Source: an uncultured bacterium (GTDB lineage Bacteria; Abyssobacteria; SURF-5). Taken from it: 64,000 bases of DNA. Shown here piece after piece: positions 11,733 to 26,296 of the stretch (positions are counted from its first letter, which is position 1; each line of letters begins with the position of its first letter). Location: NCBI GenBank assembly GCA_964607485.1, contig CAZSKP010000006.1, positions 97,157 through 161,156 of the forward strand, written 5' to 3'. The notes below the pieces were generated by a model. That model was not told the DNA's origin. It saw nothing but the letters and a program-made list of their open reading frames with translations, and made no database searches. The position numbers and the translations under genes are program-made.

Positions 11733-13436
11733 TCAGCGTTTTTGGCGGAGTTTCTTTAGGGAAAGCGTGTTGAGGATGTCCTGTGGCTCGAGCCAGCCGC
11801 GACGGGCCACGGCGATGCCGAGCCTCAGCATGTCCAGGTGTTCGAGCCGATGCGCGTCGGTGCCGATGGCGAGCTTGACGCCGAGCTGTTTGGCGCGTTT
11901 GCACCAGATGTCGTCGAGGTCGAGCCTGTCGTAGTTGGCGTTGATTTCTATCGCCGTTCCCGTCTTGGCGGCGACGGCGAGGATTTCCTCGATGTCGACA
12001 TCGTAAGGCGACCGCTGGCCGATGAGCCTGCCGGTCGGGTGCGCGATGCAGTCAACCAGCCGGTTCTCCATGGCGGAGACGATACGGCGCGTGATTTTCT
12101 CGCGAGGCTGCTTGAAGCCCGAGTGTATCGAGGCGACCACCCAGTCGAATTTTTCGAGAAGGTCGTCGGGATAGTCGAGCTTTCCGTCGGAGAGTATGTC
12201 CAGCTCCGTCCCCATGAGCAGCTTGAGATTCTTGAGCTTGGAATTGAGTTTTTGGATTTTCCTGCGTTTCTCCTCCACCCGGTCGGGGGTGAGACCGCGC
12301 GCGATCTTGAGCGATTGCGAATGGTCGGTGACGGCTATGTATTTGTAGCCAAGCGCCTGCGCGCGTTCGGCAAGCTGTTCGAGCGTGGCGCGGCCGTCGC
12401 TGAAGTCGGAATGCACGTGCATATCGCCCTTTATCTGTTTGGTGGTCACGAGGTCGGGCAGCGCGTCTTCGCCGGCCGCCTCGATCTCGCCCCTGTCCTC
12501 CCTGAGCTCAGGCGGCATGTAGCGCAATCCCATTGCGTCGTAAATATCTTCCTCTTCCGCGCCTCCGATTCTCTTTTCACCCTTGAAGATGCCGTACTCA
12601 TTGATTTTCATCCCGCGGCCTTTTGCGATGTCGCGCAGCTTGATATTGTGGGCTTTCGAGCCGGTGAAATACTGGAGCGCGGCCCCGAAGCAGTCCTCGT
12701 CCACGACTCGCAGGTCGATCTGTTGGTTTCCCTCGACAATCACGCTTGCCTTGGTACTTCCGGCCGCCAGCACTCTCTTCACTTGGGGAAGAGTCGTGAA
12801 TGCCTCGATGGCCTTGGCGTGGTCGGCGGCCGAGGCGAGAATGTCGATGTCCCCGATTGTTTCACACATGCGCCTGAGACTGCCGGCCATCTCGGCCCGT
12901 TTGACGGCCCGAAATTTTCTCACCGACGCCACAATCTCTTCCGCTACGGGAAGCGCGATTCCCAGGGGGATGCGCTTCGCCGCCTCGCGGAGCAGCTCGA
13001 TGCCTTTGAGAATGTTTTCCGCCTTTTTTTCGCCCATCCCCGGCAGCTCTGCCAATTTGCCTGAGCGAGCCGCCTCTTCGAGCGCCTGGAAGGAATCTAT
13101 CTTCAGCTTGGAATGGATGAGCGCCAGGCTCTTGGGGCCCATTCCGGGTATCTGAAGCATGTCGATGAGCTCGTCGGAGAGCCCCTTGCGCTCTTCTTCA
13201 TACTTCTTGATTTTTCCCGTCTCAAGGTATTCACGTATTTTCTCCGCCGTGCTCTTGCCGATGCCCGGCAGCTCCGACAGCCGGTCTTCGGCCGCGACGA
13301 CGGCGATGTCCTCGGTGGTGTCGCGCAATGTGCGCGCCGCCTTTCGGTACGAGTTGACCTTGAACACGACGTCGCCCTTGAATTCAAGGATGTCGCCGAG
13401 ACGGTCGAATATTTCAGCTATCTCCGAATTTTTCAT
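11733..13436 (-). CDS. polX: DNA polymerase X with PHP exonuclease domain
   Basis: HhH motifs PGIGK and PGMGPK; GSLRR..ETIGDID; IDLR; YFTGSK.HN. PHP motifs HVHS..SDG, TDHS, HPTGR and TDAH are intact. Confidence 0.95.
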   Translation of the reverse strand: MKNSEIAEIFDRLGDILEFKGDVVFKVNSYRKAARTLRDTTEDIAVVAAEDRLSELPGIGKSTAEKIREYLETGKIKKYEEERKGLSDELIDMLQIPGMGPKSLALIHSKLKIDSFQALEEAARSGKLAELPGMGEKKAENILKGIELLREAAKRIPLGIALPVAEEIVASVRKFRAVKRAEMAGSLRRMCETIGDIDILASAADHAKAIEAFTTLPQVKRVLAAGSTKASVIVEGNQQIDLRVVDEDCFGAALQYFTGSKAHNIKLRDIAKGRGMKINEYGIFKGEKRIGGAEEEDIYDAMGLRYMPPELREDRGEIEAAGEDALPDLVTTKQIKGDMHVHSDFSDGRATLEQLAERAQALGYKYIAVTDHSQSLKIARGLTPDRVEEKRRKIQKLNSKLKNLKLLMGTELDILSDGKLDYPDDLLEKFDWVVASIHSGFKQPREKITRRIVSAMENRLVDCIAHPTGRLIGQRSPYDVDIEEILAVAAKTGTAIEINANYDRLDLDDIWCKRAKQLGVKLAIGTDAHRLEHLDMLRLGIAVARRGWLEPQDILNTLSLKKLRQKR

Positions 13437-13451
13437 GGATTCGCGGTGCTC

Positions 13452-13943
13452 TCAGCGGTCTGCCGACCCGCTCAGGCTCCATTTTGGGACGAGGTCGTCC
13501 AGCAGAGCCTTCACGTACTTCTCGATTTCCTCGTACGTGGAAATGAAATACTCTATCGGCGCCCCGTAGGGGTCTTCGACGTCACGGCCGCGGACGTGGG
13601 GAGGACCGAAATCTGTCAACAAGCGATACTTGCCGCCGCTGTCCCCGCATATGACACCGGCTTCTCTGAGATGGTTTCTCTCCAGTCCGATAACAAGGTC
13701 GGCCCTCTTGAGCATCTGCCGTGTGACTTGCCGGGCCCGATGGCGCGACAGGTCAACACCCCGTTCGGCCGCCACCTCGACGGCAAGCTCGGCCGCGGTC
13801 TGACCGATCAGCGCTAACGTGCCCGCCGATGAGACGGTGACGGAATTTATCCCTCTTTTCGCCAGCTCTTGCTTCAGGATTCCCTCGGCTATAGGAGACC
13901 TGCACAGGTTGCCGGTACAGAGAAACAGTACATGTCTGCTCAT
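13452..13943 (-). CDS. Low-molecular-weight protein phosphatase (LMW-PTP/YwlE family)
   Basis: P-loop CTGNLCRS, SAGT and DPYG motifs; ATG at 13943. Confidence 0.9.
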   Translation of the reverse strand: MSRHVLFLCTGNLCRSPIAEGILKQELAKRGINSVTVSSAGTLALIGQTAAELAVEVAAERGVDLSRHRARQVTRQMLKRADLVIGLERNHLREAGVICGDSGGKYRLLTDFGPPHVRGRDVEDPYGAPIEYFISTYEEIEKYVKALLDDLVPKWSLSGSADR

Positions 13944-13950
13944 CGAGTCT

Positions 13951-13979
13951 AATGTAGAGGAATCGAGGGGTAAAGTCAA
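13951..13979 (-). promoter_or_regulatory. Sigma70 promoter (TTGACT-N17-TACATT), probably leaderless, for phosphatase-polX
   Basis: The -10 ends 7 nt before the ATG at 13943, and there is no SD sequence. Confidence 0.6.
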
Positions 13980-14015
13980 GGCGGCCGAGACGGCCGAAAT
14001 CGGAGGCAGCGCCTG

Positions 14016-15074
14016 CTACGGAGCTTGGCCTTTGGAGCCCGATTGTATTTCCTTGCGGAGGCCTTCAACGAGCGAGCGGCACTCAGGGTCGGTCTTCTGG
14101 AGGGTCTTGATCTTGCGGCAGGCGTGCAGGACGGTCGTGTGGTCCTTCCTGCCGAAAACCTGTCCGATCTCGGAGAGCGAGGCCGAGGTGAGCTCGCGAC
14201 TCAGATACATGGCCACCTGACGCGGAAACGCCACGGAGCGCGAACGGCGGGGCGAGGTGAAATCGGATTCCTTGATGCCGAAGAATTTGGCGGCGATTTG
14301 CCTTATGCCGTCCACCGTGACCTCGGAGATTCGCCCGCGCTTGATTATGTCTGCAAGCACCTCCCTCACAAGCTTCGGTGAGGGCGACTCCCCGCGAACG
14401 CCTGCCGTCGCTATCGTTCTTGTGAGCACTCCCTCCAGCTCGCGTATGTTTGAGCTCACATGCTCGGCTATCAGCCTCAGCACGTCCGTCGAGAGCTCGA
14501 CCTTGCAGTTCTCGGCTTTCTTTCTGAGTATGGCGACGCGGGTGTCGAAATCGGGCGGCTCCAGCGCCGCCACGAGTCCCCATTCGAACCTGCTCACCAG
14601 ACGGTCCTCGAGCGTGGGTATCTGCTTGGGAGGACGGTCGGACGAGATGACTATCTGCTTCTTCTTATCGTGAAGCGCGTTGAACGTATGAAAGAACTCC
14701 TCCTGGGTGGCGTCCTTTCCGGCGATGAAATGAATGTCGTCTATGAGCAAGAAATCGATGCTCCGAAACCTTTGTCGAAACTCCTCCGTCGCCCTGTTCT
14801 GAATGGCCATAATCAACTGATTCGTGAAATGCTCCGTCGAAAGGTATGCGGCCTTCAGCCTGCCCGTATGCCGCGAAAGCGCGTGGTGACCGATGGCCTG
14901 CATCAGATGCGTCTTGCCCAGGCCCACGCCCCCGTGCAGGAAGAGGGGGTTATACAGCTCGGCGGGAGTTTCGGCCACCCCTTTGGCCGCCGAATGCGCA
15001 AACAGGTTGCATGAACCGACCACAAAGTTTTCGAAGGTGTACTGGGGATTGAGCGTTGAACGGGAGTATCGCAT
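14016..15074 (-). CDS. dnaA: DnaA paralogue lacking domains I-II (AAA+ and DNA-binding domains only)
   Basis: LNPQYTFENFVVG, Walker A GGVGLGKTHL, Walker B LLIDDIH, TQEEFFHTFN, RLVSRFEWGL, and domain IV RQVAMYL...DHTTVLHA. An in-frame stop at 15090-15092 prevents N-terminal extension. Confidence 0.9.
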   Translation of the reverse strand: MRYSRSTLNPQYTFENFVVGSCNLFAHSAAKGVAETPAELYNPLFLHGGVGLGKTHLMQAIGHHALSRHTGRLKAAYLSTEHFTNQLIMAIQNRATEEFRQRFRSIDFLLIDDIHFIAGKDATQEEFFHTFNALHDKKKQIVISSDRPPKQIPTLEDRLVSRFEWGLVAALEPPDFDTRVAILRKKAENCKVELSTDVLRLIAEHVSSNIRELEGVLTRTIATAGVRGESPSPKLVREVLADIIKRGRISEVTVDGIRQIAAKFFGIKESDFTSPRRSRSVAFPRQVAMYLSRELTSASLSEIGQVFGRKDHTTVLHACRKIKTLQKTDPECRSLVEGLRKEIQSGSKGQAP

Positions 15075-15123
15075 GGATATACCAAACGGTCAATCGGGCT
15101 TGCCTAAAGAGTTTCTCAAGGAC

Positions 15124-15237
15124 ACATCCACAAAATTATCAACATTTCCCATGTCGTCTCATAAGCTACTGTTGCTGAATTGGTTAGCCTGACTTCAAGC
15201 ACCAATATCGGCTATCTTATCCACAGTCTTATTCACA
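15124..15237 (+). promoter_or_regulatory. DnaA-box cluster (two tandem pairs)
   Basis: TTATCCACA at 15217-15225 and TTATTCACA at 15229-15237 match consensus; ACATCCACA at 15124-15132 and TTATCAACA at 15136-15144 are degenerate. Each pair has a 3-nt gap. Confidence 0.8.
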
Positions 15238-15524
15238 GGTCTCAGTTGTAACATGTCGCTACAAAACCACGGAAGCCCGCCCCAGAAGGTCGTTGAACGA
15301 ACGATTAGCATGGACGTCTCCCAGGAAGGTGCTTATGCCTTTCTTGTCCATCTCTTTCTGTGTCTTGGGGTTTGGCGACCATCGGCATATTGTAATAAAT
15401 AGTGACACTTCAAACACTCCGACCACGCGCACCCATTGAGATACAGAGAAAGCGGCGCACAATCAGTCTTGCCACCCAATCGGGGTTGCCGTCAGTGCTC
15501 AGAGATGATTTTCCGGAGGGGTTA

Positions 15525-17252
15525 TTAGGCGTACCCCATGGTTTCGCCCACAACTTCTTCTATGGAGGTGACGCCCGCTAGTATCTTGGCGATACCAGCT
15601 TCTCGAAGCGTATGCATGCCCGCCCGGATGGCAGCGTCTCTCAACTCTCCGGTCGCGCACCGTTGAAGTACGAGCTCGCGCATTTCATCGTTGAACGTCA
15701 TCAGTTCGTAGATGCCGGTCCTGCCTTTATACCCGATATGCGAGCATTCCTTGCACCCGCGTGCCCGATATATCTTCTTGTCTTTTATTCGCTCCCTGGT
15801 CAGTCCGATGGTATGGAGCTCTTCGTCTGAAGGCTCATACTCTTCGTGACAGAACAGGCAGAGCTTTCGCACGAGCCGCTGGGCAACCACGGCCTCGATG
15901 GTGGAGGTCAAGAGGAACGGCTCGACGCCCATATCGATGAGGCGCGTGATCGTGCTGGGCGCGTCGTTGGTGTGAAGGGTGCTGAAGACGAGGTGGCCGG
16001 TGAGCGAAGCCTCGACCGCGAGGTCGGCCGTTTCCTGGTCACGTATTTCGCCAACCATACAGATGTCGGGGTCCTGACGGAGAATCGACCTGAGGCACTT
16101 GGCGAATGTCAGTCCCACCTTTTCGTTTATGTGCACCTGAACAATTCCGTTGACCTGATATTCGACCGGGTCCTCGGTCGTTATTATCTTCCATTGCGGG
16201 TCGTTCAACTCATTGAGGCAGGCATACAGCGTAGTCGTCTTGCCGGAACCGGTCGGTCCCGTCACGAGGATGATTCCGTTGGGCTTCTCAATGAGCTGCA
16301 TTACCTCCTCGTACTGATTTTGTTGAAGGCCGAGACCGTCAAGGTTGATCATGACGGCGCTTCTGTCCAGAATACGAATCACGACGCTTTCGCCGAACAT
16401 TGTCGGCAGGAATGAGATACGGAGGTCGATATCCTTGCCCCCGAGGGAGAGCTGTATGCGACCGTCCTGCGGGAGCCTCCGCTCGGCGATGTCGAGGTTC
16501 GACATGACCTTGAGACGGGAGCAGACGGCCACGCTCAGATGTTTGGGCGGTGTGGAGATGGTATAGAGCACGCCGTCAACTCGCTGGCGCACCTGATAGT
16601 CTTCCTCGAACGGTTCAAAGTGAAGGTCCGAGGCGCGGCTCTGTATCGCCTGCAGGATGACCAGGTTGATGAGTTTAATGACGGGCGCTTCGTGGGCGAG
16701 TGCGATGAGATTGTTCGCGTCGGCTATCTCTTCGCGTGTGCCCGACGTGGTCGATTGATCCAGCACTTTCTCGACGTCGGCGAAAAGTTCGTCGATCATC
16801 GCCGCTGCGGATTCGCCCTGGTAGCCGTAATGCTTTTCGATTGCCGCGGCGATTTCGCTCTGCGTGCTGACGGCTCCCTCTATCTCGCATCCGAGTATGA
16901 CCTTCAGGTCGTCGATGGTGTTGATGGCAAGCGGGTCCGCCATGGCTATGGTCAGGACGTTATCGTTTTTCCGAATGGGAATGATGTTATAAAATTGCGC
17001 GATGTCGGGAGTGACCAGGTTGAGAACGTCGGTGTTGATGGATATCTGTGACAGGTTGGCCTGCTCCATGCCCTGCTGGACGCCCAGGGCATTGACGATA
17101 TCCTGCTCGGTGGCATACCCCATGCTCACAAGAGTACGCCCCAGGAACTCGCGGCTCACCCGTTGTTTTTCGAGGGCCTCCTCGAGTTGAGCAGCCGTTA
17201 TGACACCGTTTTCGAGAAGTATTTCTCCGAGATTTCTCGTTCCTAGTGGCAA
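15525..17252 (-). CDS. PilB/GspE family secretion ATPase
   Basis: MshEN-like N-terminus, ASDLHFEP, GPTGSGKTTT, TEDPVEY, LRQDPD, GEIRD, STLHTND and tetracysteine motif. TTG start. Confidence 0.92.
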   Translation of the reverse strand: MPLGTRNLGEILLENGVITAAQLEEALEKQRVSREFLGRTLVSMGYATEQDIVNALGVQQGMEQANLSQISINTDVLNLVTPDIAQFYNIIPIRKNDNVLTIAMADPLAINTIDDLKVILGCEIEGAVSTQSEIAAAIEKHYGYQGESAAAMIDELFADVEKVLDQSTTSGTREEIADANNLIALAHEAPVIKLINLVILQAIQSRASDLHFEPFEEDYQVRQRVDGVLYTISTPPKHLSVAVCSRLKVMSNLDIAERRLPQDGRIQLSLGGKDIDLRISFLPTMFGESVVIRILDRSAVMINLDGLGLQQNQYEEVMQLIEKPNGIILVTGPTGSGKTTTLYACLNELNDPQWKIITTEDPVEYQVNGIVQVHINEKVGLTFAKCLRSILRQDPDICMVGEIRDQETADLAVEASLTGHLVFSTLHTNDAPSTITRLIDMGVEPFLLTSTIEAVVAQRLVRKLCLFCHEEYEPSDEELHTIGLTRERIKDKKIYRARGCKECSHIGYKGRTGIYELMTFNDEMRELVLQRCATGELRDAAIRAGMHTLREAGIAKILAGVTSIEEVVGETMGYA

Positions 17253-17290
17253 GGCTTACTCACGCTCCTTTTTCACATCCGCCCAAACTC

Positions 17291-19084
17291 TCAGCTGACG
17301 CTCTTCACCAGTTTCAGTCCCGGCAACACGTCGTCCTGCTGGGTGACCGACACGGCCTCCTCGATCGTGGTCGTGCCCGAAAACACTTTGAGCCAGGCGT
17401 CGTCCCGAAGGGTTCTCATTCCATCCCGCCGCGCCTGGTTTTTCAAATTGAGTGTGGGCTCGTGCTTGAGCACCATCTCGCGGATGATTTCATTCATCAT
17501 TAAAAGTTCCAGCACGGTAGTTCGGCCGTGGTAGCCGGTGCGGTTGCAGCTCTCACACCCTGTGCCCTTATAGAAGGTGATGTCTCGGACTTCATCGGGG
17601 TCAAGGCCCAGCTGGCGCAGTTGGTCGTCGCTCGGATGGTCCTCGACCTTGCAGCTCCTGCAGATTTTCCGGACGAGGCGCTGCGCCGATATGGCCTGAA
17701 CGGCGGAGGACACGAGGAAGGGTTTTATGCCCATGTCGATGAGTCGGTTCAACGCGCCGGCTGAGTCGTTGGTATGAAGCGTGCTGAACACGAGGTGTCC
17801 GGTGAGAGCCGACCGGATGGCGATCTCCGCGGTCTCGCTGTCGCGGATTTCACCGACCATCACGATATCGGGCGACTGTCGGAGGATCGACCTCAGCCCG
17901 GCGGCGAAGGTAAGGCCTATCTCGGAATCGATCTGCACCTGATTTATGCCCGACAGAACGTACTCGACCGGGTTCTCGATGGTGATTATCTTGCGTTCGG
18001 GCGTGTTGATGGTATTGAGCGACGCGTACAGCGTGGTCGTCTTGCCCGAGCCGGTCGGCCCGGTCACCAGCACGATGCCCGTGGGGATATGCAGCAGGCT
18101 TTCCCATTGCCTGAGCGTGTCAACGGCGTAACCGAGGTCGCGCAGGTCGAGTGCCAGGCTGCTCTTGTCGAGGATTCGGAGAACGAAACTTTCGCCGTAT
18201 ATCGCCGGAAGCGCGGAAGCGCGGAGGTCGATGTCCTTGCCCATCAATTGCAGTTTTATGCGGCCGTCCTGCGGGATTCTCTTTTCCGAAATGTCCATTC
18301 CGGCCATCAGCTTCAGACGGGAGAGGATGGCGTTCTGCAGCGCTTTGGGAGGCGGGTTCACCTCGTGCAGAATGCCGTCGATGCGGTACCGGACCTTCAG
18401 TTCGCGCTCGAACGGCTCTATATGGATGTCGCTCGCGCGGTGCCTGAACGCTTCGAGGATCAGCAGGGTGACCAGTTTGATTATGGGCCCTTCGTCGCCC
18501 TCCTCGTCGTCGCCGCCCTCCATTATCGAACCGTCGAATTCGATGCTCTCGACGCTCAGACTGCTCACGCTCAAACTGCTCACCGTGCTCAGGCTGTCTC
18601 CGCTCACCTGGGACAACATGGTATCGACGGTGACCTCCTCGAGGCCGTAGTATTTGCGGATGGCTTCCTTGATGTCCTCCGGTGTGGCCAACACGGGGCT
18701 TATGTTGCACTCGAGCAGCAGGCGCAGATTATCTACCACGCCGAGGTTCGTCGGGTCGAACATGGCCACGTAAAGGGTGTTGCCCTCTTTCCGGACGGGG
18801 ACAACCTGATAGATTTTTGCGATAGACGGTTGTACGAAATCTATCAGTTGCTGCGAAATTTCCAGATTGGACAAGTTCACCAACGGGAGGTTAAGCTGAG
18901 TGGCGAGGGCTTCGGCCAGATGCTTGGAGGTTATGTAGCCAAAACTGACGAGAACGTCGCCCAGCCGCTTGCTGCTGGCGCGTGTCTGCTGCCGTTTCAG
19001 GGCATCCTTGAGCTGCTCCTGTGTGATGGCGCCCTGAGCCAGCAATATCTGCCCTAACGACTTGCTGCTCTCAACTACCGCCAT
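17291..19084 (-). CDS. PilB/GspE family secretion ATPase
   Basis: MshEN-like N-terminus (KRLGDVLV), ASDIHIEP, GPTGSGKTTT, GEIRD, STLHTND and CxxC..CxxC. Confidence 0.92.
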   Translation of the reverse strand: MAVVESSKSLGQILLAQGAITQEQLKDALKRQQTRASSKRLGDVLVSFGYITSKHLAEALATQLNLPLVNLSNLEISQQLIDFVQPSIAKIYQVVPVRKEGNTLYVAMFDPTNLGVVDNLRLLLECNISPVLATPEDIKEAIRKYYGLEEVTVDTMLSQVSGDSLSTVSSLSVSSLSVESIEFDGSIMEGGDDEEGDEGPIIKLVTLLILEAFRHRASDIHIEPFERELKVRYRIDGILHEVNPPPKALQNAILSRLKLMAGMDISEKRIPQDGRIKLQLMGKDIDLRASALPAIYGESFVLRILDKSSLALDLRDLGYAVDTLRQWESLLHIPTGIVLVTGPTGSGKTTTLYASLNTINTPERKIITIENPVEYVLSGINQVQIDSEIGLTFAAGLRSILRQSPDIVMVGEIRDSETAEIAIRSALTGHLVFSTLHTNDSAGALNRLIDMGIKPFLVSSAVQAISAQRLVRKICRSCKVEDHPSDDQLRQLGLDPDEVRDITFYKGTGCESCNRTGYHGRTTVLELLMMNEIIREMVLKHEPTLNLKNQARRDGMRTLRDDAWLKVFSGTTTIEEAVSVTQQDDVLPGLKLVKSVS

Positions 19085-19128
19085 CGTCCTTCCCCCCTTT
19101 TCGGATTCATGCGGATTATACCAAGAAA

Positions 19129-19157
19129 ATTATACCTCACCGCCCAATCGATGTCAA
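19129..19157 (-). promoter_or_regulatory. Sigma70 promoter (TTGACA-N17-TATAAT) for the tandem PilB-like genes
   Basis: Perfect consensus between gspM and the ATG at 19084; a second TATAAT lies at 19120-19115. Confidence 0.7.
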
Positions 19158-19203
19158 GCCGCCAAAGCCGTTTCGCGGCCTGTATCTCCAGCGCCGGCAG
19201 GGA

Positions 19204-19728
19204 TTAGGACATGCCTATCGAAGTGACCAGCATCGACACGTTCAATCCTCCGCCCAATCGCGATTCGGGCTGGATGCGGATGCTTGCGATGGCAACCGCC
19301 GCGCCGGTTCTCTCGATTTCATACAGATAGGCTACCAGATTCTCCAGCGATATTCCTTCCAGCCTGACCTCAACCATGTCCTCGGCAAGATCGCCGCCAA
19401 GATTGCGACGAGATGGTTTCATCGAGGTCAAGTTCTTCTTCAGATTGAGCCTGTTTGCGGTTTGGTCGAGGAAGGAGAACAACGCGAAGTCACGCGAGCG
19501 TCCGCTCACACCCTGCTTGATCTCCTTGGTTTCCTTGAGTATCTGGTCGTATTCCTGCTCGAGCAGTCTCAGGTCGATAAGCTGAGCGCGGGCCCGCTTT
19601 ATCCGATTGTCCAAATCGGCTCGTTTTTTCAGCGTCGGGGAAATGACCAGCATATGAATGAGCACCCCGACCACCACGGCGGCAGCGGCCGCGATAAGCT
19701 TTCTCTCTCTCGTTTTGAGACCTGTCAT
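19204..19728 (-). CDS. gspM: Type II secretion protein M
   Basis: RER motif plus one TM, coiled coil and ferredoxin-like C-terminus (EVRLEGISLENLVAYLYEIE); lies after gspL. Confidence 0.75.
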   Translation of the reverse strand: MTGLKTRERKLIAAAAAVVVGVLIHMLVISPTLKKRADLDNRIKRARAQLIDLRLLEQEYDQILKETKEIKQGVSGRSRDFALFSFLDQTANRLNLKKNLTSMKPSRRNLGGDLAEDMVEVRLEGISLENLVAYLYEIERTGAAVAIASIRIQPESRLGGGLNVSMLVTSIGMS

Positions 19729-21218
19729 GGGTTATCCCCGGTCCTCGCGCCGGCGTCCGATTGGAATTCGTTTCGTATCCTCGCCCGGATCCTGAAATTC
19801 ACTTTTTCACCCTTTTCCGCCTTTGTGGCGGAATCGATTTTCACTTCGTAGAGCAAAGGTGATTTTTCCAGCCGGCCATTGAATATGTTGATGTCATCGA
19901 AGGAATCCACCTCGCCCGTCATGCGGAGGACATTGTCTGAAATAGCCAGGTCGTTCAGCGCAAGGTTCTTCTTGTCGGGTATGCTCGCCGTCACCTCGGA
20001 GAGAACGTTGAGCGGCGACACGTATGTCGAGGAATAGTTTCTGAGCGACTTGAACTTATCCTGCTCCTCTTTTACTCTCTGCTCGGCTACCTCGGGAGAA
20101 TTGATTCCGGGAAGAGTGTCCGCGAAAATCTTCAGCATTTCCCGGTTCAACGATTCCAGTTGGCGCGATTCCTGACGAATCTCGGCTGCGACGCTGCCGA
20201 ACCACGCGACCAACGCCACCGCGAGAACGACAAGGCTGAAATAAATGTTTGACTTCACCCGGGAGAGCGGGGAGAGGGGGGCATATTCCTCCCGCCTGAA
20301 GTTGACCTCGTTTGCCGACGTTCCCAGTCCGACGCGGGCAAGAGCTATCGCAAGCCGGAAATCGTCGGCTCTGTCCAAGAGCGGCGGAGGAATTTCGGCG
20401 AGAGTTCCCTCGTTGAATCCGACTGTCCTCACGGGGAAATCGCGAAGCGACCCTTGCAGGATTTTGCGCATGTTGTCCGCGCCCGTGCCGGCTATACACA
20501 GCGTGCCGACCTCCGCGCTCACCGAGGATTGAAAGGAGAAAAGCGACCGCTGTATCTCCTTGACCATCTTCTTTGCGGCCTGTTCGTCGCCCGGGGACAT
20601 TCCGTCGAGATTCCTGTAACCGAGCAGCTTCTCTCCGCTGAAGAAGCCCAGGAAAGAACCGCTGCTGTCCACATGCAGCAGAGCCGTGGCTTTATCGGGC
20701 GAAAAATCGAACGGATTCATGTAGAAGTCCGCCAGCGCCAGCGCATCGAGCGTGATGACCTGCGGGTCCACGCCGGCCATCTCGAACAGCTGCAATCGTT
20801 CCGATATGAGGTTCTTCGTCACGGCTATCGCGAGTAGTTCGGCGCCGGCATCCGTCTCCCGCATCGCGACATAGTCGGAGACAACCTGCTCGATGGGATA
20901 CGGAATCTGGGGTTCAATCTGAAACTTCAACGTCTGCCTGAGCTTGCCGGGGTCGGTAATGGGAGTGGCCAACGTTCGGTTTATGCTTGCGGAGGCGGGC
21001 AGACAGGCGACCGAGGTGTCGCCGTCGAGCCCGCTTTCTTCGAACATTTGTCGTATCACTGAAGCTGTCGCCGCCTTTGCCTCCTGCCCGGATGTTTGCG
21101 GAATCTCTCTCTCTATCAGGTCCAGCACCCTCATTCGTCCGCCCTGGCCGCTGGCCACGGCTATCTTCACGCAATCCGGCTGAATGTCGATCCCAATGCT
21201 TTTGCTCTGGAATATCAT
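19725..21218 (-). CDS. gspL: Type II secretion protein L (PilM-like actin domain, TM, PilN-like domain)
   Basis: GIDI N-terminus, QIPYPIE, an VNF motif before the TM and a PilN-like C-terminus. ATG at 21218 overlaps the gspK stop. Confidence 0.75.
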   Translation of the reverse strand: MIFQSKSIGIDIQPDCVKIAVASGQGGRMRVLDLIEREIPQTSGQEAKAATASVIRQMFEESGLDGDTSVACLPASASINRTLATPITDPGKLRQTLKFQIEPQIPYPIEQVVSDYVAMRETDAGAELLAIAVTKNLISERLQLFEMAGVDPQVITLDALALADFYMNPFDFSPDKATALLHVDSSGSFLGFFSGEKLLGYRNLDGMSPGDEQAAKKMVKEIQRSLFSFQSSVSAEVGTLCIAGTGADNMRKILQGSLRDFPVRTVGFNEGTLAEIPPPLLDRADDFRLAIALARVGLGTSANEVNFRREEYAPLSPLSRVKSNIYFSLVVLAVALVAWFGSVAAEIRQESRQLESLNREMLKIFADTLPGINSPEVAEQRVKEEQDKFKSLRNYSSTYVSPLNVLSEVTASIPDKKNLALNDLAISDNVLRMTGEVDSFDDINIFNGRLEKSPLLYEVKIDSATKAEKGEKVNFRIRARIRNEFQSDAGARTGDNP

Positions 21219-22285
21219 CTGTCCACTTTCCAAAACGCAGTGTCGATGCTGAAGTACTCGTGGTCCGCCTGCTGCTCATCGGCGTGGACGCGCTTCAGAA
21301 GAGCTCTTATCTTCACGTCCCGTGTCGGCGGCTCTTTGGTCGATGACTCTTCGGTTTGTGGCGCTTGGGAGAGAACGCGTCCGCTCGATTCCGCCAGAAA
21401 GTACGAGCTTCGGGTTGTGAACTTCTCCGAAAGGTTGACATCGGGAATGCGGCCGGCCATGTCCTGGGCGCTTTCGAACGGGGAGGTCTGCCGCATGTCC
21501 ACTATCGTCGAAGCGAGAGACTCGCTGTTCAGAAGAGCCGCGACCACCTGTTCGGGCGCAGTGTTGATGTTGACGAGCCCGTCCTCGTCTCCGAAGACAG
21601 TGACGAAATCCGCCAGGCCGGGGTTCTTATCGTCTCCGTACAGAGTCTTCTTGTCAAACCCCTTCACGAGCAACAGCTCTTCGACGCTGTCCATCGGTCC
21701 GTTCTTGCATTTCATTGGCGGGTCCAGAGATTCGTAGTATGCATTCTCTGCGCCGAAAGGCTGCTCCTGGTCGTTTTCATCCAGCCAGTCCACGATGCAG
21801 TCAACTAGGTTAGGGTCGATCTCCAGCAGTTCGAACAAGTGCCTGAAACTCTCAACCATCGACACGTTCAGGCTCTCGATGTCATACTCGGTCGTGGGTC
21901 TCTTTATCAAACGGTTCAAGTTGAGCTTGGACATCTCGTCCGAGATACGCGTCTCGGCTTCCGTAGATGCCGTCTCCACTTTGATTTCCGACGCCCACTC
22001 CTCATTGAGCGTGTCGGCCGTCAGCCCGGTTTCGAAATCCGTCATGACGTCGTTCAGCAGCATGGCCTTGGCCTTCTCGACGCCCGCGCGCGCCGCCGCC
22101 TCGGCCCGGAGGTTTTCGACCATGTTGCCCGAGAGCGTCGCGTGAACCCGCATGAGATAATTGAATTCCAACACAACGACGGACAGAATGACGGTGACGA
22201 GCAGGGTCAACAGCAAGGCCATCCCCCCTTCGTCACACGCGGCCCTTACTGGTCGCTCTCGGCTTATTATGGGGCATTTGTTCAT
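21215..22285 (-). CDS. gspK: Type II secretion minor pseudopilin K
   Basis: G/MALLLTL prepilin without E5, DEMSKLNLN, DWLDEN, EELLLVKG and NINTAP. Confidence 0.9.
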   Translation of the reverse strand: MNKCPIISRERPVRAACDEGGMALLLTLLVTVILSVVVLEFNYLMRVHATLSGNMVENLRAEAAARAGVEKAKAMLLNDVMTDFETGLTADTLNEEWASEIKVETASTEAETRISDEMSKLNLNRLIKRPTTEYDIESLNVSMVESFRHLFELLEIDPNLVDCIVDWLDENDQEQPFGAENAYYESLDPPMKCKNGPMDSVEELLLVKGFDKKTLYGDDKNPGLADFVTVFGDEDGLVNINTAPEQVVAALLNSESLASTIVDMRQTSPFESAQDMAGRIPDVNLSEKFTTRSSYFLAESSGRVLSQAPQTEESSTKEPPTRDVKIRALLKRVHADEQQADHEYFSIDTAFWKVDR

Positions 22286-22379
22286 TCTGTGTCAAGCCTG
22301 CAATGTTCGCTTGCGCACGCGGACTCACCTGCGTTTTGCATCCTCGGCCGCATGCGCCGAGCCCGCCGATTCCCCCGTT

Positions 22380-23258
22380 TCAGAAAGTGAGCGATGAATC
22401 GGACGACTCGTCGGATTTGGGAAACTCGATCGGTTCATCCGATTCAGCAGGAGCGTCCCCCGACGCCTCCCCTTCGGGCGCTTCTTCAACCTGTTCGGTC
22501 TCTTTGGTCTCTTCCGTCTCTTCTGTTTCTTCCGGTTCCTGGGCCGGCGGTTCCATCGGCTGTTCGAGCAGCGTATTCACTTCGACGTGAGCGATCGTGG
22601 AAAACGTATATGTGTCGCCGTTCGAATCTGCCAGCTCGAGGGCGACCCTGACGGCGTCGGGCAGCACCCCTTGGTCCTCATACTTCCACTCCTGAAGCCA
22701 GTCGGCGCCGTCGGAATATTCAAGGTTGAGGGAGCGGATATTCAGCGACCATTGAGGCGTCGCCTCCTCGTCCTCCGACTTCAGCAGCAGCGGCTCCACC
22801 GTGCACTTCAGGACGAACGGATTGTTTTCGTCTCCAAACAGTTCGGCGTCCTCGAGGTCCTGTGCACGGACGACTTCGTAACTGACACGCGCGGTTTCGC
22901 CCGGCATCGCGCGTGTGCCGAAGCGGGGATTGGTCGTGAAGGCGCTCAATGAATCCGCATCGGAATTTTCGATTAGGGTATCCGTCCCGAGGAAGACAGA
23001 CTGGTCGTCGTCTTCCGGCGAATAGCTTCCCGCGAACGGGACGTAGGCCGATGATACGTTCCGGGAGATATTGCTGAGGATGAAGTTGGCGCGGTGATAG
23101 ATGGCCGCGCGCTCTTCCTGTTCCTCCGCGTTCCTGACGGTGTAGAAGAACGTGCCGAAAATGATGCTGAATATCATCGCGAGGATTGTGATGGCTACCA
23201 GAATCTCAATCAGGGTGAATCCTTCGCAGGCGGCCCTCTTGTTCACGGACGCTTTCAT
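22380..23258 (-). CDS. gspJ: Type II secretion minor pseudopilin J with acidic C-terminal tail
   Basis: G/FTLIEIL prepilin motif and W.QEW...LPDAVRV.L. ATG at 23258 overlaps the gspI stop. Confidence 0.8.
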   Translation of the reverse strand: MKASVNKRAACEGFTLIEILVAITILAMIFSIIFGTFFYTVRNAEEQEERAAIYHRANFILSNISRNVSSAYVPFAGSYSPEDDDQSVFLGTDTLIENSDADSLSAFTTNPRFGTRAMPGETARVSYEVVRAQDLEDAELFGDENNPFVLKCTVEPLLLKSEDEEATPQWSLNIRSLNLEYSDGADWLQEWKYEDQGVLPDAVRVALELADSNGDTYTFSTIAHVEVNTLLEQPMEPPAQEPEETEETEETKETEQVEEAPEGEASGDAPAESDEPIEFPKSDESSDSSLTF

Positions 23259-23623
23259 TCGACCAAGGCCCTCGCAACGAAAGTCTCCAGCGCGAACTCG
23301 CTCTCCGGAAACTTGATCGTTATCGTCACCTTCTTGAGATTCTTGACATCGGCGTCCTCGACTTCCAGCTCCCATTCACAGTTGGGATACTGGGATTCGA
23401 AATCGCCTGAATCGCTCGCGAGAGAATCGAACGGGGTCGTGAGAATCTCTTCCATCTTTTGGCGGGCCAGCAGCGCGGCCAGCGTCTGTTCGCGGTTTTT
23501 CTCGGCGAGGTTCAGGCTCATCAGGTGGGTTCCAAGCAGAGTCACGAGCGCGGTTGCGATGATGCTGAGCGCCACCATCACTTCCAACAGCGTGAATCCT
23601 CTGTTTGAACGATGTGCGGTCAT
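23255..23623 (-). CDS. gspI: Type II secretion minor pseudopilin I
   Basis: RG/FTLLEVMVAL prepilin motif, 122 aa, expected position in the cluster. Confidence 0.85.
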   Translation of the reverse strand: MTAHRSNRGFTLLEVMVALSIIATALVTLLGTHLMSLNLAEKNREQTLAALLARQKMEEILTTPFDSLASDSGDFESQYPNCEWELEVEDADVKNLKKVTITIKFPESEFALETFVARALVE

Positions 23624-24210
23624 CCGGTTTCGCTGCTCAGGGGAAGAAGCGTGGGAATGCCTGTCACGCCATCATACAGGACGGCGAACCTTCCCCCGTC
23701 CTCGTTCGCGAGATATATAGTGGCGGGACTCGCGTTGCCAAGCGGGCTGAACTCGATGTATTGCGGGCCGAGCGACGCCGTGGTGCGCTCTTCCCGCACC
23801 TCGACCGATGAAAAATGCACACCGGGAGGCAGCTTTCTGGGAGCGAACATGGGCTCGCTCGGAGTGGTCTCCTCGACGTTTCCGCCGCTTTCCTCATGTT
23901 GAAGCAGTTCAAAATGCGTCCCGATTCGAATTCCGGTTGCGCGGGTCGAGCCTTCGCCTTCTTCGACTTCAGTGACCTCCGTTATCCAGTACTTGTCGGC
24001 CGAACTGTCCAGATAGAGCCTGTACGTCTTGTTCTTCGTGACCGACTCGCCATAGGCGAGGCTGATTGTGCCCGAGAGCAGCCGGGCCGCGCTCTTGAGC
24101 CTTCGTTGGGGCACGAAGGGGTCCAGCCGCGGAAGCACGATGGCGGCCATGATACTGATGATCGCCATGACCACGACGAGCTCGACGAGAGTGAATCCTC
24201 TTCTTCTCAT
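23620..24210 (-). CDS. gspH: Type II secretion minor pseudopilin H
   Basis: RG/FTLVELVVV prepilin motif and C-terminal IEFSPLG...VTG. Confidence 0.8.
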   Translation of the reverse strand: MRRRGFTLVELVVVMAIISIMAAIVLPRLDPFVPQRRLKSAARLLSGTISLAYGESVTKNKTYRLYLDSSADKYWITEVTEVEEGEGSTRATGIRIGTHFELLQHEESGGNVEETTPSEPMFAPRKLPPGVHFSSVEVREERTTASLGPQYIEFSPLGNASPATIYLANEDGGRFAVLYDGVTGIPTLLPLSSETG

Positions 24211-24257
24211 GTTTCCAACCCTACTCCTGCATTAGGGCCTTCAGTCAAATTACATTC

Positions 24258-24417
24258 ACCGCGAAGACGCAAAGAACGCAAAGAGATACTAGCCACAGCA
24301 CACTTTCTCTTCCTTTTTTGGTGTCTTGGTGCCTTGGTGGTTCGCGGTCATTTCTCTGCGCCCTTTGCGTCTTTGCGGTTCAAATCTTATTCGTGGCATT
24401 TGTTCCCATTCGTGTTC
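24258..24417. repeat. Cluster of short REP-like repeats between gspG and gspH
   Basis: Inverted pair ACCGCGAAGACGCAAAGAACGCAAAGAGA (24258-24286) and TTTCTCTGCGCCCTTTGCGTCTTTGCGGT (24351-24379). Also GGTGTCTTGGTGCCTTGGTGGTT (24320-24342) and ATTCGTG...ATTCGTG (24389-24417). Confidence 0.7.
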
Positions 24418-24433
24418 GGGAGTTGTTTCGTCT

Positions 24434-24886
24434 TTACTCGATGTTCCAGCTTTCGATATCGGCGTTTTCGTCTTCGCCGCCCTCAACGCCGTCGGCGCCG
24501 AGCGACTTTATTTCATAGTCGAACCCGTGAGAGCCGGGCGATTCGTATATGTAAGGGTTGCCCCACGGGTCGTTCGGAACCTTTGCGCTGTCGAGGTAGC
24601 CACCCTTCTTGTATTTCTCGGGGATTCTGCCGGTCGTCGGCTCGACCACGAGCGCCTGCAAGCCCTGCTCGGTTGAAGGGTAGAAGCCGCTATCCAGCCT
24701 GAACAGCTTCAGCCCCGTCTCGAAGCTTCTTATCTGCGCCTTGGCTGCGTTTATCTTCGCGTCCTCGGTTCTCTCGATGAACTTGGGGGCGATGTAGGCG
24801 GCGAGGATGCCTATGATGACGATGACCACCATCAATTCGATCAGCGTGAATCCGCGCTCCGACTTCCGGAAACGGGTTCCGTTCAT
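24434..24886 (-). CDS. gspG: Type II secretion major pseudopilin G
   Basis: RG/FTLIELMVV, YPSTEQGLQALV, DPWGNPY and SLGADG.EGG...ADI. SD GGAGGGAG precedes the ATG at 24886. Confidence 0.95.
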   Translation of the reverse strand: MNGTRFRKSERGFTLIELMVVIVIIGILAAYIAPKFIERTEDAKINAAKAQIRSFETGLKLFRLDSGFYPSTEQGLQALVVEPTTGRIPEKYKKGGYLDSAKVPNDPWGNPYIYESPGSHGFDYEIKSLGADGVEGGEDENADIESWNIE

Positions 24887-24902
24887 TCCCAACACTCCCT
24901 CC

Positions 24903-26126
24903 TCACTGGACGATACGGTTGATGTCGAATATCGGCAGCAGCACCGCCAGCACGATGAATCCCACCGCCGCCGCCATGACCACTATCATCGTCGGCTCGA
25001 GCAGCGACACGATGCCCAAAAGCGTCGTGTCCACTTCGTCGTCGAATGTGTCGGCCACCTTGATGAGCATGTCTTCGAGCTGGCCGCTGCGTTCGCCGAG
25101 CGCTATCATGTGGGTCACGACCGGCGGAAACACGGTGCTTCGCTTCAATGACACGGCAAGGTCGTCGCCCTTGCGCACGCTCTCCTGCGCCTCATCTATC
25201 GCGCGGGCGATGATCCGGTTGTTGACGATGCTCTTCACGATTTCGAGTGAATCCAAAAGGTTGACGCCGCTCTGCGTGAGCGTGCCGAGCGTGCGAGCGA
25301 ATCGAGCGACGGCCATCTTGCGGTTCAGCTTCCCGAAGACGGGAAGCACGAGCTTGATCCTGTCCCACGCCGTTCCGCCCGCCTCTGTCTTCAGGTAGCG
25401 GTTTATCGCGAGCAAGCCGAGCGCCGCTATGATAAAGATTACCAGCCAGTAGTGGCGCATGAAAGCTGACACGTTGATGAGAACGACGGTCGGCGTCGGC
25501 AACGCTCGGTTGACCTGCATGAATATTTTCGTGATGGTGGGGATGATGTAGGTCATCAGAAAGAACAGCACGCCGAAGCCCACCACCGTCATGAGCGATG
25601 GATAGAGCATGGCCGAGGTCACCCGTCGTCGGAGCGCGAGCTGTTTTTCCATGTAGTCGGCCAGTCGGAACAGCACGATCTCGATCGCCCCCGACGATTC
25701 ACCCGCCTTGACCATGTTCACGTATAACTGGGGAAAATAGCGCCGATGCTGTGCGAGCGCCGCCGAGAGAGAGGCCCCTTCGCTGATCGTTTCTTTTATC
25801 TGATATACGATCTTCACCAGGCCCTTGTTGTCTATCTGTTCGAGCACGGCGTTGAGCGCCTCGACGAGAGGCATCCCCGCCTGCAGGAGCACGGCGAGCT
25901 GGCGGGTGAACAGGGCGATGTCAGGCGTCTTGGGCCGGGAGAGAATTTCGGACAGGACTATCTCGCGCGCGGGCTTCGCCGCGCCGCGCGTTGTCTCGCC
26001 GACCTGAACGGGCATGAGGCCCATCTCGCGCAGCTTTGCGCGTGCGGCCAGCGCGCTGTCGGCGTCGAGCACACCCTTTACCCGCTTGCTGGCGTCGTTT
26101 ATCGCGATGTATTCAAAGACGGGCAT
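24903..26126 (-). CDS. gspF: Type II secretion inner-membrane platform protein F
   Basis: MPVFEY.A, FTRQLA.LL.AG.PL, GESSG, AMLYP, GERSG and LLEP motifs. Confidence 0.92.
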   Translation of the reverse strand: MPVFEYIAINDASKRVKGVLDADSALAARAKLREMGLMPVQVGETTRGAAKPAREIVLSEILSRPKTPDIALFTRQLAVLLQAGMPLVEALNAVLEQIDNKGLVKIVYQIKETISEGASLSAALAQHRRYFPQLYVNMVKAGESSGAIEIVLFRLADYMEKQLALRRRVTSAMLYPSLMTVVGFGVLFFLMTYIIPTITKIFMQVNRALPTPTVVLINVSAFMRHYWLVIFIIAALGLLAINRYLKTEAGGTAWDRIKLVLPVFGKLNRKMAVARFARTLGTLTQSGVNLLDSLEIVKSIVNNRIIARAIDEAQESVRKGDDLAVSLKRSTVFPPVVTHMIALGERSGQLEDMLIKVADTFDDEVDTTLLGIVSLLEPTMIVVMAAAVGFIVLAVLLPIFDINRIVQ

Positions 26127-26296
26127 TGGAAGCGTTATTGCAGCGTGGTCCCCTTCAGGAACGATGTCGCCCAAAAATCACGGGAGCAGCCACAACCGGT
26201 TGAAAAAAAATGGTTATGAGTCCGCTCCCTTTCCCCGGGCAATAACGGATTGGGTTTCGGGTCCAAGCGTTTTCCTTTTCGCCTTTTCCCCCTTTT

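Follow-up and report, generated by a model that had tools for sequence, protein, structure and literature searches.

A 64,000-nucleotide (nt) stretch of DNA from an uncultured bacterium of the Abyssobacteria (lineage SURF-5; assembly GCA_964607485.1, contig CAZSKP010000006.1, positions 97,157 to 161,156; hereafter the window) encodes a short relative of the replication initiator DnaA, here called sDnaA. It is most likely a functional, vertically inherited dnaA paralogue, as judged from sequence comparison. On balance it is probably an ATP-dependent binder of DnaA boxes that would not recruit the replicative helicase, would compete with DnaA, or assemble together with it, at oriC and at promoters carrying such boxes, and would be subject to feedback through boxes of its own, a mechanism that we infer from the residues it has kept and the domains it has lost. 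The gene is as follows.

14016..15074, minus strand: short DnaA paralogue sDnaA, 352 amino acids (aa), with domain III (AAA+) and domain IV (DnaA-box helix-turn-helix) only

The reading frame starts with ATG, the protein begins MRYSRSTLNPQYTF, and the open frame amounts to 357 aa, with a TGA as the sixth in-frame codon 5' of the ATG. Pfam places Bac_DnaA at residues 8-169 (E 5e-68) and Bac_DnaA_C at residues 255-322 (E 1e-28); DnaA_N (PF11638) had no Pfam match in the protein. sDnaA scores 483.9 bits against the DnaA equivalog model TIGR00362 (cut-off 343.9), matching only positions 101-437 of the 437 in the profile; it scores 277.1 bits against NF001154 (cut-off 410), 255.2 against NF009087 (cut-off 657), and 113.5 against the Hda model TIGR03420, under the cut-off of 194.8. 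The best match among solved structures is DnaA chain 8BTG_A, which we take to be from Bacillus subtilis (8BV3, whose title names B. subtilis, has the same letters); the alignment spans residues 107-444 of 446 (E 1.4e-117) with one single-residue gap, and displays GLGKT, LLIDD, RLVSRFEWGL, NIRELEG, and DHTTVLHA. Domain IV aligns with the Escherichia coli domain IV structure 1J1V (E 4e-23). An AlphaFold (AF2) model from 25 orthologues has a mean predicted local distance difference test (pLDDT) score of 80.8, and its top fold matches are DnaA 8BTG (template modeling score by query, TMq, 0.76) and B. subtilis DnaA domain III 8BV3 (by target, TMt, 0.90). The initial annotation had described a 352-aa DnaA of domains III and IV without domain I and with a stop six codons upstream, on which Pfam, the TIGR00362 coverage, and the sequence agree; the intact Walker A and B motifs, arginine-finger region, and domain IV signature that it reported are seen in the 8BTG alignment. 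Its statement that the protein is not Hda stands, with TIGR03420 under its cut-off and domain IV present. The only Rfam match, to AsdA (the dnaA mRNA antisense RNA) at 14847-14936 on the plus strand, opposite the Walker A region (26.1 bits, under the gathering score of 52), is put down to the conserved dnaA coding sequence.

The residues on which DnaA activity depends are conserved throughout the family of short proteins. In 25 short sequences, the invariant positions include G49, V50, G51, G53, K54, and T55 of Walker A, D112 and D113 of Walker B, S145, D146, and R147 of the sensor I region, R158 and R162 of box VII, and R211 of sensor II, together with I91, R279, R285, Q286, D311, H312, and T314; in addition, at least 90% of the sequences retain I88 and R277. 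By alignment, each protein in its own numbering, I88 and I91 correspond to 8BTG residues 190 and 193, presumably the isoleucines of the initiator-specific motif that contact single-stranded DNA (ssDNA), and R162 to residue 264, which we take to be the arginine finger. Through the 1J1V alignment, R277, D311, H312, and T313 correspond to E. coli R399, D433, H434, and T435, presumably the residues that read the DnaA box. Because the ATPase, arginine-finger, ssDNA, and box-reading residues are kept, sDnaA should use the same boxes as DnaA and oligomerize. Only seven positions distinguish the short clade from residues common to at least 80% of 66 DnaAs from outside the family. Two of the seven, the substitutions A131S and A135G (8BTG numbering), have become fixed or almost fixed among the short proteins, and they alone fall at positions where the usual residue is common to at least 94% of the 66 non-family DnaAs and to all nine canonical DnaAs of the family. 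The N-terminal clamp-binding motif of Hda, which we take to be QL[SP]LPL-like, was not seen; the seven residues before LNPQYTF vary in the 25 orthologues (MxxSxSxLNPQYTF).

A comparison of domains III-IV in one shared set of eight genomes gives a mean pairwise identity of 69.6% among the short proteins versus 79.7% among the canonical ones. The proportion of nonsynonymous differences (pN) between short copies is 0.08-0.16 in five genome pairs; for the canonical copy it is 0.064-0.10 in the four pairs among these that have both copies, so that the pN of the short copy is about 1.3-1.6 times that of the canonical one. Synonymous sites are saturated, with a corresponding proportion (pS) of 0.58-0.79 (0.58-0.73 for the short copy). 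Purifying selection on the short gene is clear from these values, and appears somewhat relaxed relative to that on the initiator.

The genome from which the window comes (4.70 Mb in 93 contigs, 97.5% complete) contains a second dnaA. A six-frame search gave five DnaA-type matches, one of which, on contig C38 (locus L002), is a 447-aa dnaA with DnaA_N, Bac_DnaA, and Bac_DnaA_C that is 55% identical to sDnaA and is directly followed by dnaN (beta clamp) and then dciA. Across all six frames the genome encodes Bac_DnaA_C twice and DnaA_N once, in the C38 gene; thus, domain I is supplied to sDnaA by neither a frameshift nor a separate gene, and both possibilities are ruled out. No Hda above the cut-off was found in the genome (0 of 5 matches). 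The 500 nt 5' of the C38 dnaA hold the densest cluster of DnaA boxes in the genome, with six boxes of at most one mismatch, three of them perfect, and the promoter of this gene has a box pair at -147/-135 with the same 3-nt spacing as the pairs of sDnaA described below. Between dnaA and dnaN come, in order, a box (TTATCCACG), trio-like 3-nt repeats (CAT ACT ACT ACA TAT), and an AT-rich stretch, an arrangement that we take to be the Bacillus-type origin layout (basal unwinding system). This configuration suggests that the C38 dnaA-dnaN locus is likely the chromosomal origin.

Several expectations of the initial annotation are borne out here. A full-length dnaA was looked for elsewhere in the genome and is present on C38, so sDnaA is not the sole dnaA; set against the neighbors of sDnaA, that locus supports the description of a second DnaA without domains I and II outside the dnaA-dnaN context. 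All orthologues at the sDnaA locus in relatives are short, with no full-length one there. A sequencing frameshift hiding domain I, which it had named as a possible source of error, is contradicted by the single DnaA_N and by contigs from two DNA runs, which span the gene and its start region and show neither differences nor indels (X1, 13900-14955 and 15023-15600; X2, 15037-15208). All four DNA runs come from one sediment-metagenome study that may include the source sample, and the support from them is weak.

The phylum was sampled by 11 species genomes, ten in one family (f1, including the window's own) and one, G010, in another (f2). Short-form matches of 68-78% identity were identified in eight of the nine other f1 genomes; none was found in G004 (98% complete) or in G010. 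All nine short genes encode 347-357 aa, and their first start lies 3-14 codons past an in-frame stop (5 codons in seven of them). Canonical DnaA (446-456 aa) is encoded in nine f1 genomes and was not found with the sDnaA query in G008 (95% complete, 570 contigs). Among the best 120 matches in a large protein collection, 28 clusters (317-357 aa, 62-92% identity) lack DnaA_N; the other 92 are at most 59% identical, and DnaA_N is present in 91 of them and absent from P0087 (409 aa, on a 1284-nt contig). The short proteins carry the public name "chromosomal replication initiator protein DnaA" and come from metagenome-assembled genomes (MAGs) labeled Ca. Lindowbacteria, Poribacteria, or Abyssubacteria. 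The best 150 representatives at 50% identity include just one protein of the III-IV-only build, P0164 (360 aa, 48% identity, a single-member entry from a contig of 1.2 kb). DnaA_N is likewise missing in that set from P0224 (391 aa) and from P0225 (468 aa), and P0225 carries a C-terminal tail of about 130 residues past the DnaA domains that may be a gene-call artefact. On this sampling, a DnaA of domains III and IV only is rare and is so far conserved as a clade in the f1 lineage alone.

A 107-row tree of domains III-IV unites the 30 short sequences in a clade of their own (Shimodaira-Hasegawa-like approximate likelihood ratio test, SH-aLRT, 100) and the nine canonical DnaAs of the family in another (SH-aLRT 100), with the two clades as sisters (SH-aLRT 86). 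A more careful 51-row tree recovers the short and canonical clades with 100/100 support each and places the short clade outside a group of G010 and the family canonical DnaAs (support 42/61 and 46/79). The approximately unbiased (AU) test leaves the sister topology of the 107-row tree unrejected (delta log-likelihood 0.85, p 0.435). A contig search for related loci recovered no locus of the family itself; all its matches were full-length DnaAs from other phyla (at most 56% identity), which served as outgroups only. It therefore seems most likely that the short gene derives from the lineage's own dnaA by duplication, followed by loss of domains I and II. Placements of the duplication before and after the f1/f2 split are both compatible with the trees, and transfer from a near relative may instead account for the short gene. 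The canonical DnaA of G004 nests within the family canonical clade, and for this reason the absence of the short gene from G004 is read as a loss.

The spacer of about 450 nt between the last upstream gene, encoding an ATPase, and sDnaA contains two tandem pairs of DnaA boxes and other conserved elements.

15124..15144, minus strand: proximal tandem DnaA-box pair, TGTTGATAA (15144 to 15136), 3 nt, TGTGGATGT (15132 to 15124)
15217..15237, minus strand: distal tandem DnaA-box pair, TGTGAATAA (15237 to 15229), 3 nt, TGTGGATAA (15225 to 15217, a perfect box)
15135..15162, minus strand: sigma-70-like promoter match, ATGAGA, 16 nt, GATAAT, from a consensus scan only; overlaps the proximal box pair
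15079..15093, minus strand: start-proximal motif TTGACCGTTTGGTAT, directly 5' of the ATG; core CGTT invariant in ten of ten genomes
15292..15308, minus strand: conserved motif farther upstream, CTAATCGTTCGTTCAAC, related to the start-proximal one

In an alignment of this region from ten genomes (A1), among them G004, from which the gene has been lost, mean column identity is 60%, with sharply conserved blocks, and the two tandem box pairs are present throughout the ten. The proximal pair lies at -70/-58 from the ATG; TGTTGATAA is kept in nine of the ten genomes, as is the TGTGGA core of the second box. The distal pair, of the form TGTGGATAA-n3-TGTGGATAA, lies at -163/-151, its first box having at most one mismatch in all ten genomes and its second in six. 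Perfect boxes number only 29 in the 4.70-Mb genome (11 of them intergenic by a crude gene call), and the sDnaA spacer is among its four densest 500-nt clusters. The window holds 14 boxes of at most one mismatch, versus 6.1 +/- 2.6 expected, a number reached in none of 100 shuffles; three of the 14 fall within 15136-15237. The -10-like GATAAT of the consensus scan falls inside the first proximal box, TGTTGATAA, and TT at the -35 position is invariant or nearly so in A1. Occupancy of the proximal pair, which covers the -10, would therefore block the promoter, if the consensus match is correct. The motif CCAACCGTTCGTTCAA / ..AACCGTTCGTTCAA.., about 220-235 nt 5' of the ATG, is related to T.ACCGTTCGGTA directly before the ATG. 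Both CGTT-type motifs are kept in ten of ten genomes, including the gene-less G004, and may represent a regulator site or a translation signal.

The genes and signals on either side of sDnaA and its spacer are these.

15525..19084, minus strand: two GspE/PilB-type ATPases (15525..17252 and 17291..19084), conserved upstream neighbors at the end of a secretion/pilus cluster
13982..13996, minus strand: G+C-rich hairpin 20 nt past the sDnaA stop, terminator-like with a weak T tail
13979..13951, minus strand: promoter-like site of the phosphatase gene, TTGACT, 17 nt, TACATT
13452..13943, minus strand: low-molecular-weight (LMW) phosphotyrosine-phosphatase-family gene, under all NCBIfam cut-offs (best Wzb-like, 77 bits)
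11733..13436, minus strand: PolX DNA polymerase/3'-5' exonuclease (NF006375, 573 bits, cut-off 426), after the phosphatase gene

Gene annotation thus agrees with the earlier description of PilB-type ATPases upstream, an LMW phosphatase and then polX downstream, and no dnaN. The order GspE2-GspE3-sDnaA is kept in seven of eight loci of relatives; in the eighth (G001) the contig begins, by eye, inside an apparent GspE C-terminus. The ATPases belong to a complete type II secretion/type IV pilus-like cluster (15525..30129, minus strand) that encodes a secretin, three GspE-type ATPases, GspF, pseudopilins, GspK, a PilM-PilN fusion, and GspM; in the relatives' loci, the three GspE-type ATPases are paralogous and mutually 42-49% identical.

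The phosphatase-PolX pair follows sDnaA in seven of the nine genomes that have it; in G001 and G007 the pair is located on contigs other than that of sDnaA, with no DnaA box within the 240 and 640 nt, respectively, 5' of it. A TTGACT(TT)-N17-TA.A.T site lies directly 5' of the phosphatase gene in the source genome, in G001 and G007, and at the remnant in G004. Because the pair has its own promoter-like site, is separate from sDnaA in G001 and G007, and is preceded by a hairpin past the sDnaA stop, sDnaA is treated as probably its own transcription unit, with phosphatase and PolX as neighbors in a separate unit. A single DnaA-controlled sDnaA-phosphatase-PolX operon was considered and rejected in view of the conserved promoter-like site of the pair and of its separate, box-free placement in G001 and G007; the initial annotation had likewise treated the pair as mere neighbors.

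At the syntenic site in G004 (contig C64, locus L142, 541-1510), GspE3 and PolX are about 950 nt apart and the sDnaA coding region is gone; the phosphatase gene is a decayed remnant in which the ATG is followed at once by TAA, and PolX is still in place. Both promoter regions remain and still contain the two CGTTCG-type motifs and four DnaA boxes (at most one mismatch, same orientation). At E <= 1e-10, no phosphatase gene of this kind was identified at another place in G004 or anywhere in G010. sDnaA is dispensable in at least one lineage. Since the boxes are kept in G004 without sDnaA, another DnaA, the canonical one, probably also reads them. The joint decay of sDnaA and the phosphatase in G004, a single observation, is at most a hint of a link between them.

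The conserved residues and the missing domains together suggest how sDnaA may work. With ATP binding and hydrolysis, the arginine finger, the ssDNA motif, and the box-reading helix-turn-helix kept, it would occupy TTATCCACA-type boxes and would form, or enter, ATP-dependent DnaA oligomers. Without domain I it would offer no surface to hold the replicative helicase or docking partners, and it is on this account that we read it as a box-dependent regulator. It would substitute for DnaA protomers at oriC, or compete with DnaA for the boxes there, such that the domain I "handles" are diluted and helicase loading is damped; at DnaA-box promoters it would be a repressor or co-repressor. At its own promoter, the proximal pair over the -10 would provide negative feedback and tie its synthesis to box occupancy. 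In a genome with a DciA-type loader and no Hda above cut-off, an in-house brake of this sort would supply what is otherwise missing. According to the available text of the papers cited here and below, E. coli DnaA without domains I-II opened oriC in vitro like the full protein and supported neither replication in vitro nor viability, domain I being responsible for DnaA-DnaA contacts and for contacts to DnaB and regulators (PMC5448010), and DnaA represses its own promoter via DnaA boxes, more strongly as ATP-DnaA (PMC8203912). By analogy with the truncated E. coli protein (PMC5448010), sDnaA should fail to initiate chromosome replication at the step of helicase recruitment. The role proposed in the initial annotation, as a transcription factor or as a dominant-negative or hetero-oligomer modulator, would agree with the intact residues, the promoter boxes, and the dispensability in G004.

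Several observations weigh against the proposed mechanism or parts of it. Branch support for an origin by duplication is weak (86; 46/79). The loss in G004 indicates that sDnaA is non-essential and that its effect may be small. The kept ATPase and oligomerization residues also fit a pure transcription factor, given that ATP-DnaA represses cooperatively (PMC8203912, as far as its available text goes), and with an identity of 55% sDnaA and DnaA could be insulated from one another. The promoter was called by matching a consensus, in a phylum whose own promoters are unstudied, and no Shine-Dalgarno-like GGAGG lies directly 5' of the sDnaA ATG.

A narrower form of the mechanism, which we put forward tentatively as possible, if doubtful, would make sDnaA a dedicated anti-initiator: a natural "dominant-negative" protomer whose level is set by DnaA through the four boxes, acting as a self-limiting brake in an Hda-less phylum and perhaps working with the phosphatase. 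Its entry into the oriC filament would leave too few domain I surfaces for a DciA-dependent helicase. The main rival, which we hold to be rather unlikely, is that initiator and regulator functions were split after the duplication, so that sDnaA is a repressor or activator at box promoters with no role at oriC. The conserved boxes at its own promoter and the 11 intergenic perfect boxes speak for such a role; it is well established that DnaA regulates transcription and represses cooperatively in an ATP-dependent manner (PMC8203912), and in the available text of PMC5448010 box binding is not known to require domain I. Nothing, however, would exclude a protein with the same box-reading residues from the boxes of oriC; the ssDNA-contacting I88 and I91 are kept, needlessly for a regulator that binds duplex DNA, and no distinct box variant defining a private regulon was found. 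The same residues would suit a positive co-initiator that fills low-affinity or ssDNA positions of the origin filament and aids opening while a few full-length protomers provide domain I. All residues related to unwinding are kept, and E. coli oriC can be opened in vitro by domains III-IV on their own (PMC5448010, in its available text), yet this idea is improbable: sDnaA was lost in G004 with the canonical gene retained, no origin-like element lies beside its gene, and helicase binding uses multiple domain I molecules (PMC6127211, available text), so that dilution should cost activity.

A DnaA-box cluster adjoining a dnaA-like gene could also mark a second origin, or the replicator of an integrated or extra replicon, with sDnaA as its initiator. 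We rejected an origin at the sDnaA spacer on the absence of an AT-rich unwinding element and of conserved trio repeats beside the boxes, and on GC skew, which is flat across 12-18 kb, as is G+C content. The genes at 7.5-30 kb all have one orientation, chromosomal synteny is kept across genera with no mobile-element genes within 30 kb, and the missing domain I argues against helicase recruitment; taken together, this explanation is very improbable. It is barely credible that sDnaA is a mis-assembly, a frameshift, or a recently truncated and decaying pseudogene. The gene loss in G004 is all that was found in favor of this; the same short frame is present in nine genomes of eight genera and in the 28 database clusters without DnaA_N, pN is far under pS with catalytic and DNA-binding residues invariant, and the run contigs agree across the start, with domain I in no frame.

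Further DnaA-derived proteins are encoded in the same genomes outside the window, which makes the lineage well suited to the study of how DnaA modules are re-used. On contig C54 (locus L003, 1489..2877, minus strand) of the source genome, a 462-aa MshEN-DnaA fusion combines a cyclic di-GMP (c-di-GMP)-binding motif (NF053729, 58 bits, cut-off 38, residues 24-76), MshEN, and DnaA domain III, without domain IV. The gene lies directly 5' of one for a GspE/PilB-type ATPase and has orthologues in 11 of 11 phylum genomes; MshEN plus Bac_DnaA without Bac_DnaA_C is found in 118 of the best 120 database matches, including MAGs labeled Nitrospiraceae and Hydrogenedentota. The fusion may be a c-di-GMP-sensing Hda-like regulator. 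On contig C4, at about 158.7-166.4 kb (loci L004 and L005), a frame of about 1749 aa contains two DnaA-like AAA+ modules that are 27-35% identical to sDnaA, and five relatives have frames of about 1700-1780 aa. The exhaustive search ranks two representatives of 1876 and 1990 aa (P0121 and P0123) first. Smaller proteins of 585-697 aa (P0122, P0124, P0125, P0134, P0143, P0185, and P0241) also carry two DnaA ATPase modules in tandem; in P0122 a domain IV follows at the C-terminus, whereas none is seen in P0125 at E <= 1e-5. A tandem-module frame of 697 aa is present in genome G024.

In domains III-IV, sDnaA resembles full-length DnaA (TIGR00362; structures 8BTG, 1L8Q, and 2HCB), with 52-55% identity to the lineage's own DnaA and to 8BTG, a TIGR00362 score above cut-off, and all nucleotide, arginine-finger, ssDNA, and DnaA-box residues shared. 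It differs in lacking domain I and linker domain II, in being located away from dnaN and the origin, in being dispensable in one relative, and in its faster pN. Hda/HdaA is similarly a truncated DnaA relative without domain I, and sDnaA, like Hda, is presumed to act on initiation rather than to perform it. Hda, however, has no domain IV and works via the beta clamp, whereas the domain IV of sDnaA is intact and its N-terminus short and variable.

More than one dnaA-type gene per genome is known from other bacteria. Chlamydia has two DnaA proteins. Tandem dnaA-dnaA genes occur in Acidaminococcus fermentans (PMC4403523), and Rickettsia plasmids encode "DnaA-like" initiators (PMC1800911). In the available parts of these sources, such copies are whole initiators, or plasmid initiators adjoining clusters of boxes or origins, and none is described without domain I. 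sDnaA is not like a plasmid or phage initiator: synteny is kept in seven of the eight relatives' loci, no mobile-element genes were seen within 30 kb, and G+C content is flat. Engineered E. coli DnaA without domains I-II (PMC5448010) has the same architecture as sDnaA and is the basis of the mechanism proposed here, whereas sDnaA is natural, conserved in a family, equipped with its own DnaA-box promoter, and coexistent with a full-length DnaA. Earlier descriptions in the open-access literature, so far as its text was available, comprise duplicated whole dnaA genes, plasmid DnaA-like initiators, Hda, and laboratory truncations. No description of a natural, conserved DnaA paralogue without domain I was found in open-access papers and preprints; subscription journals may hold one.

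Control of initiation is known mainly from a few model bacteria, in which it relies on unrelated accessory proteins (Hda, SeqA, SirA, YabA, and Soj). If the mechanism proposed for sDnaA is true, this lineage has arrived at a different solution, in which initiation is regulated by a crippled copy of the initiator, and sDnaA would be a natural test of how many domain I surfaces an origin complex needs. For this candidate phylum, the prediction of origins and the counting of marker genes can be thrown off by the public label of the short proteins. SirA, YabA, and Soj of B. subtilis are anti-initiators that target DnaA, and the outcome proposed for sDnaA, reduced helicase recruitment at oriC, is the same as theirs. 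These proteins are in part named in the available text of PMC5448010 and PMC10201431. They are unrelated folds that bind DnaA, whereas sDnaA is itself a DnaA and would act by taking the place of a protomer.

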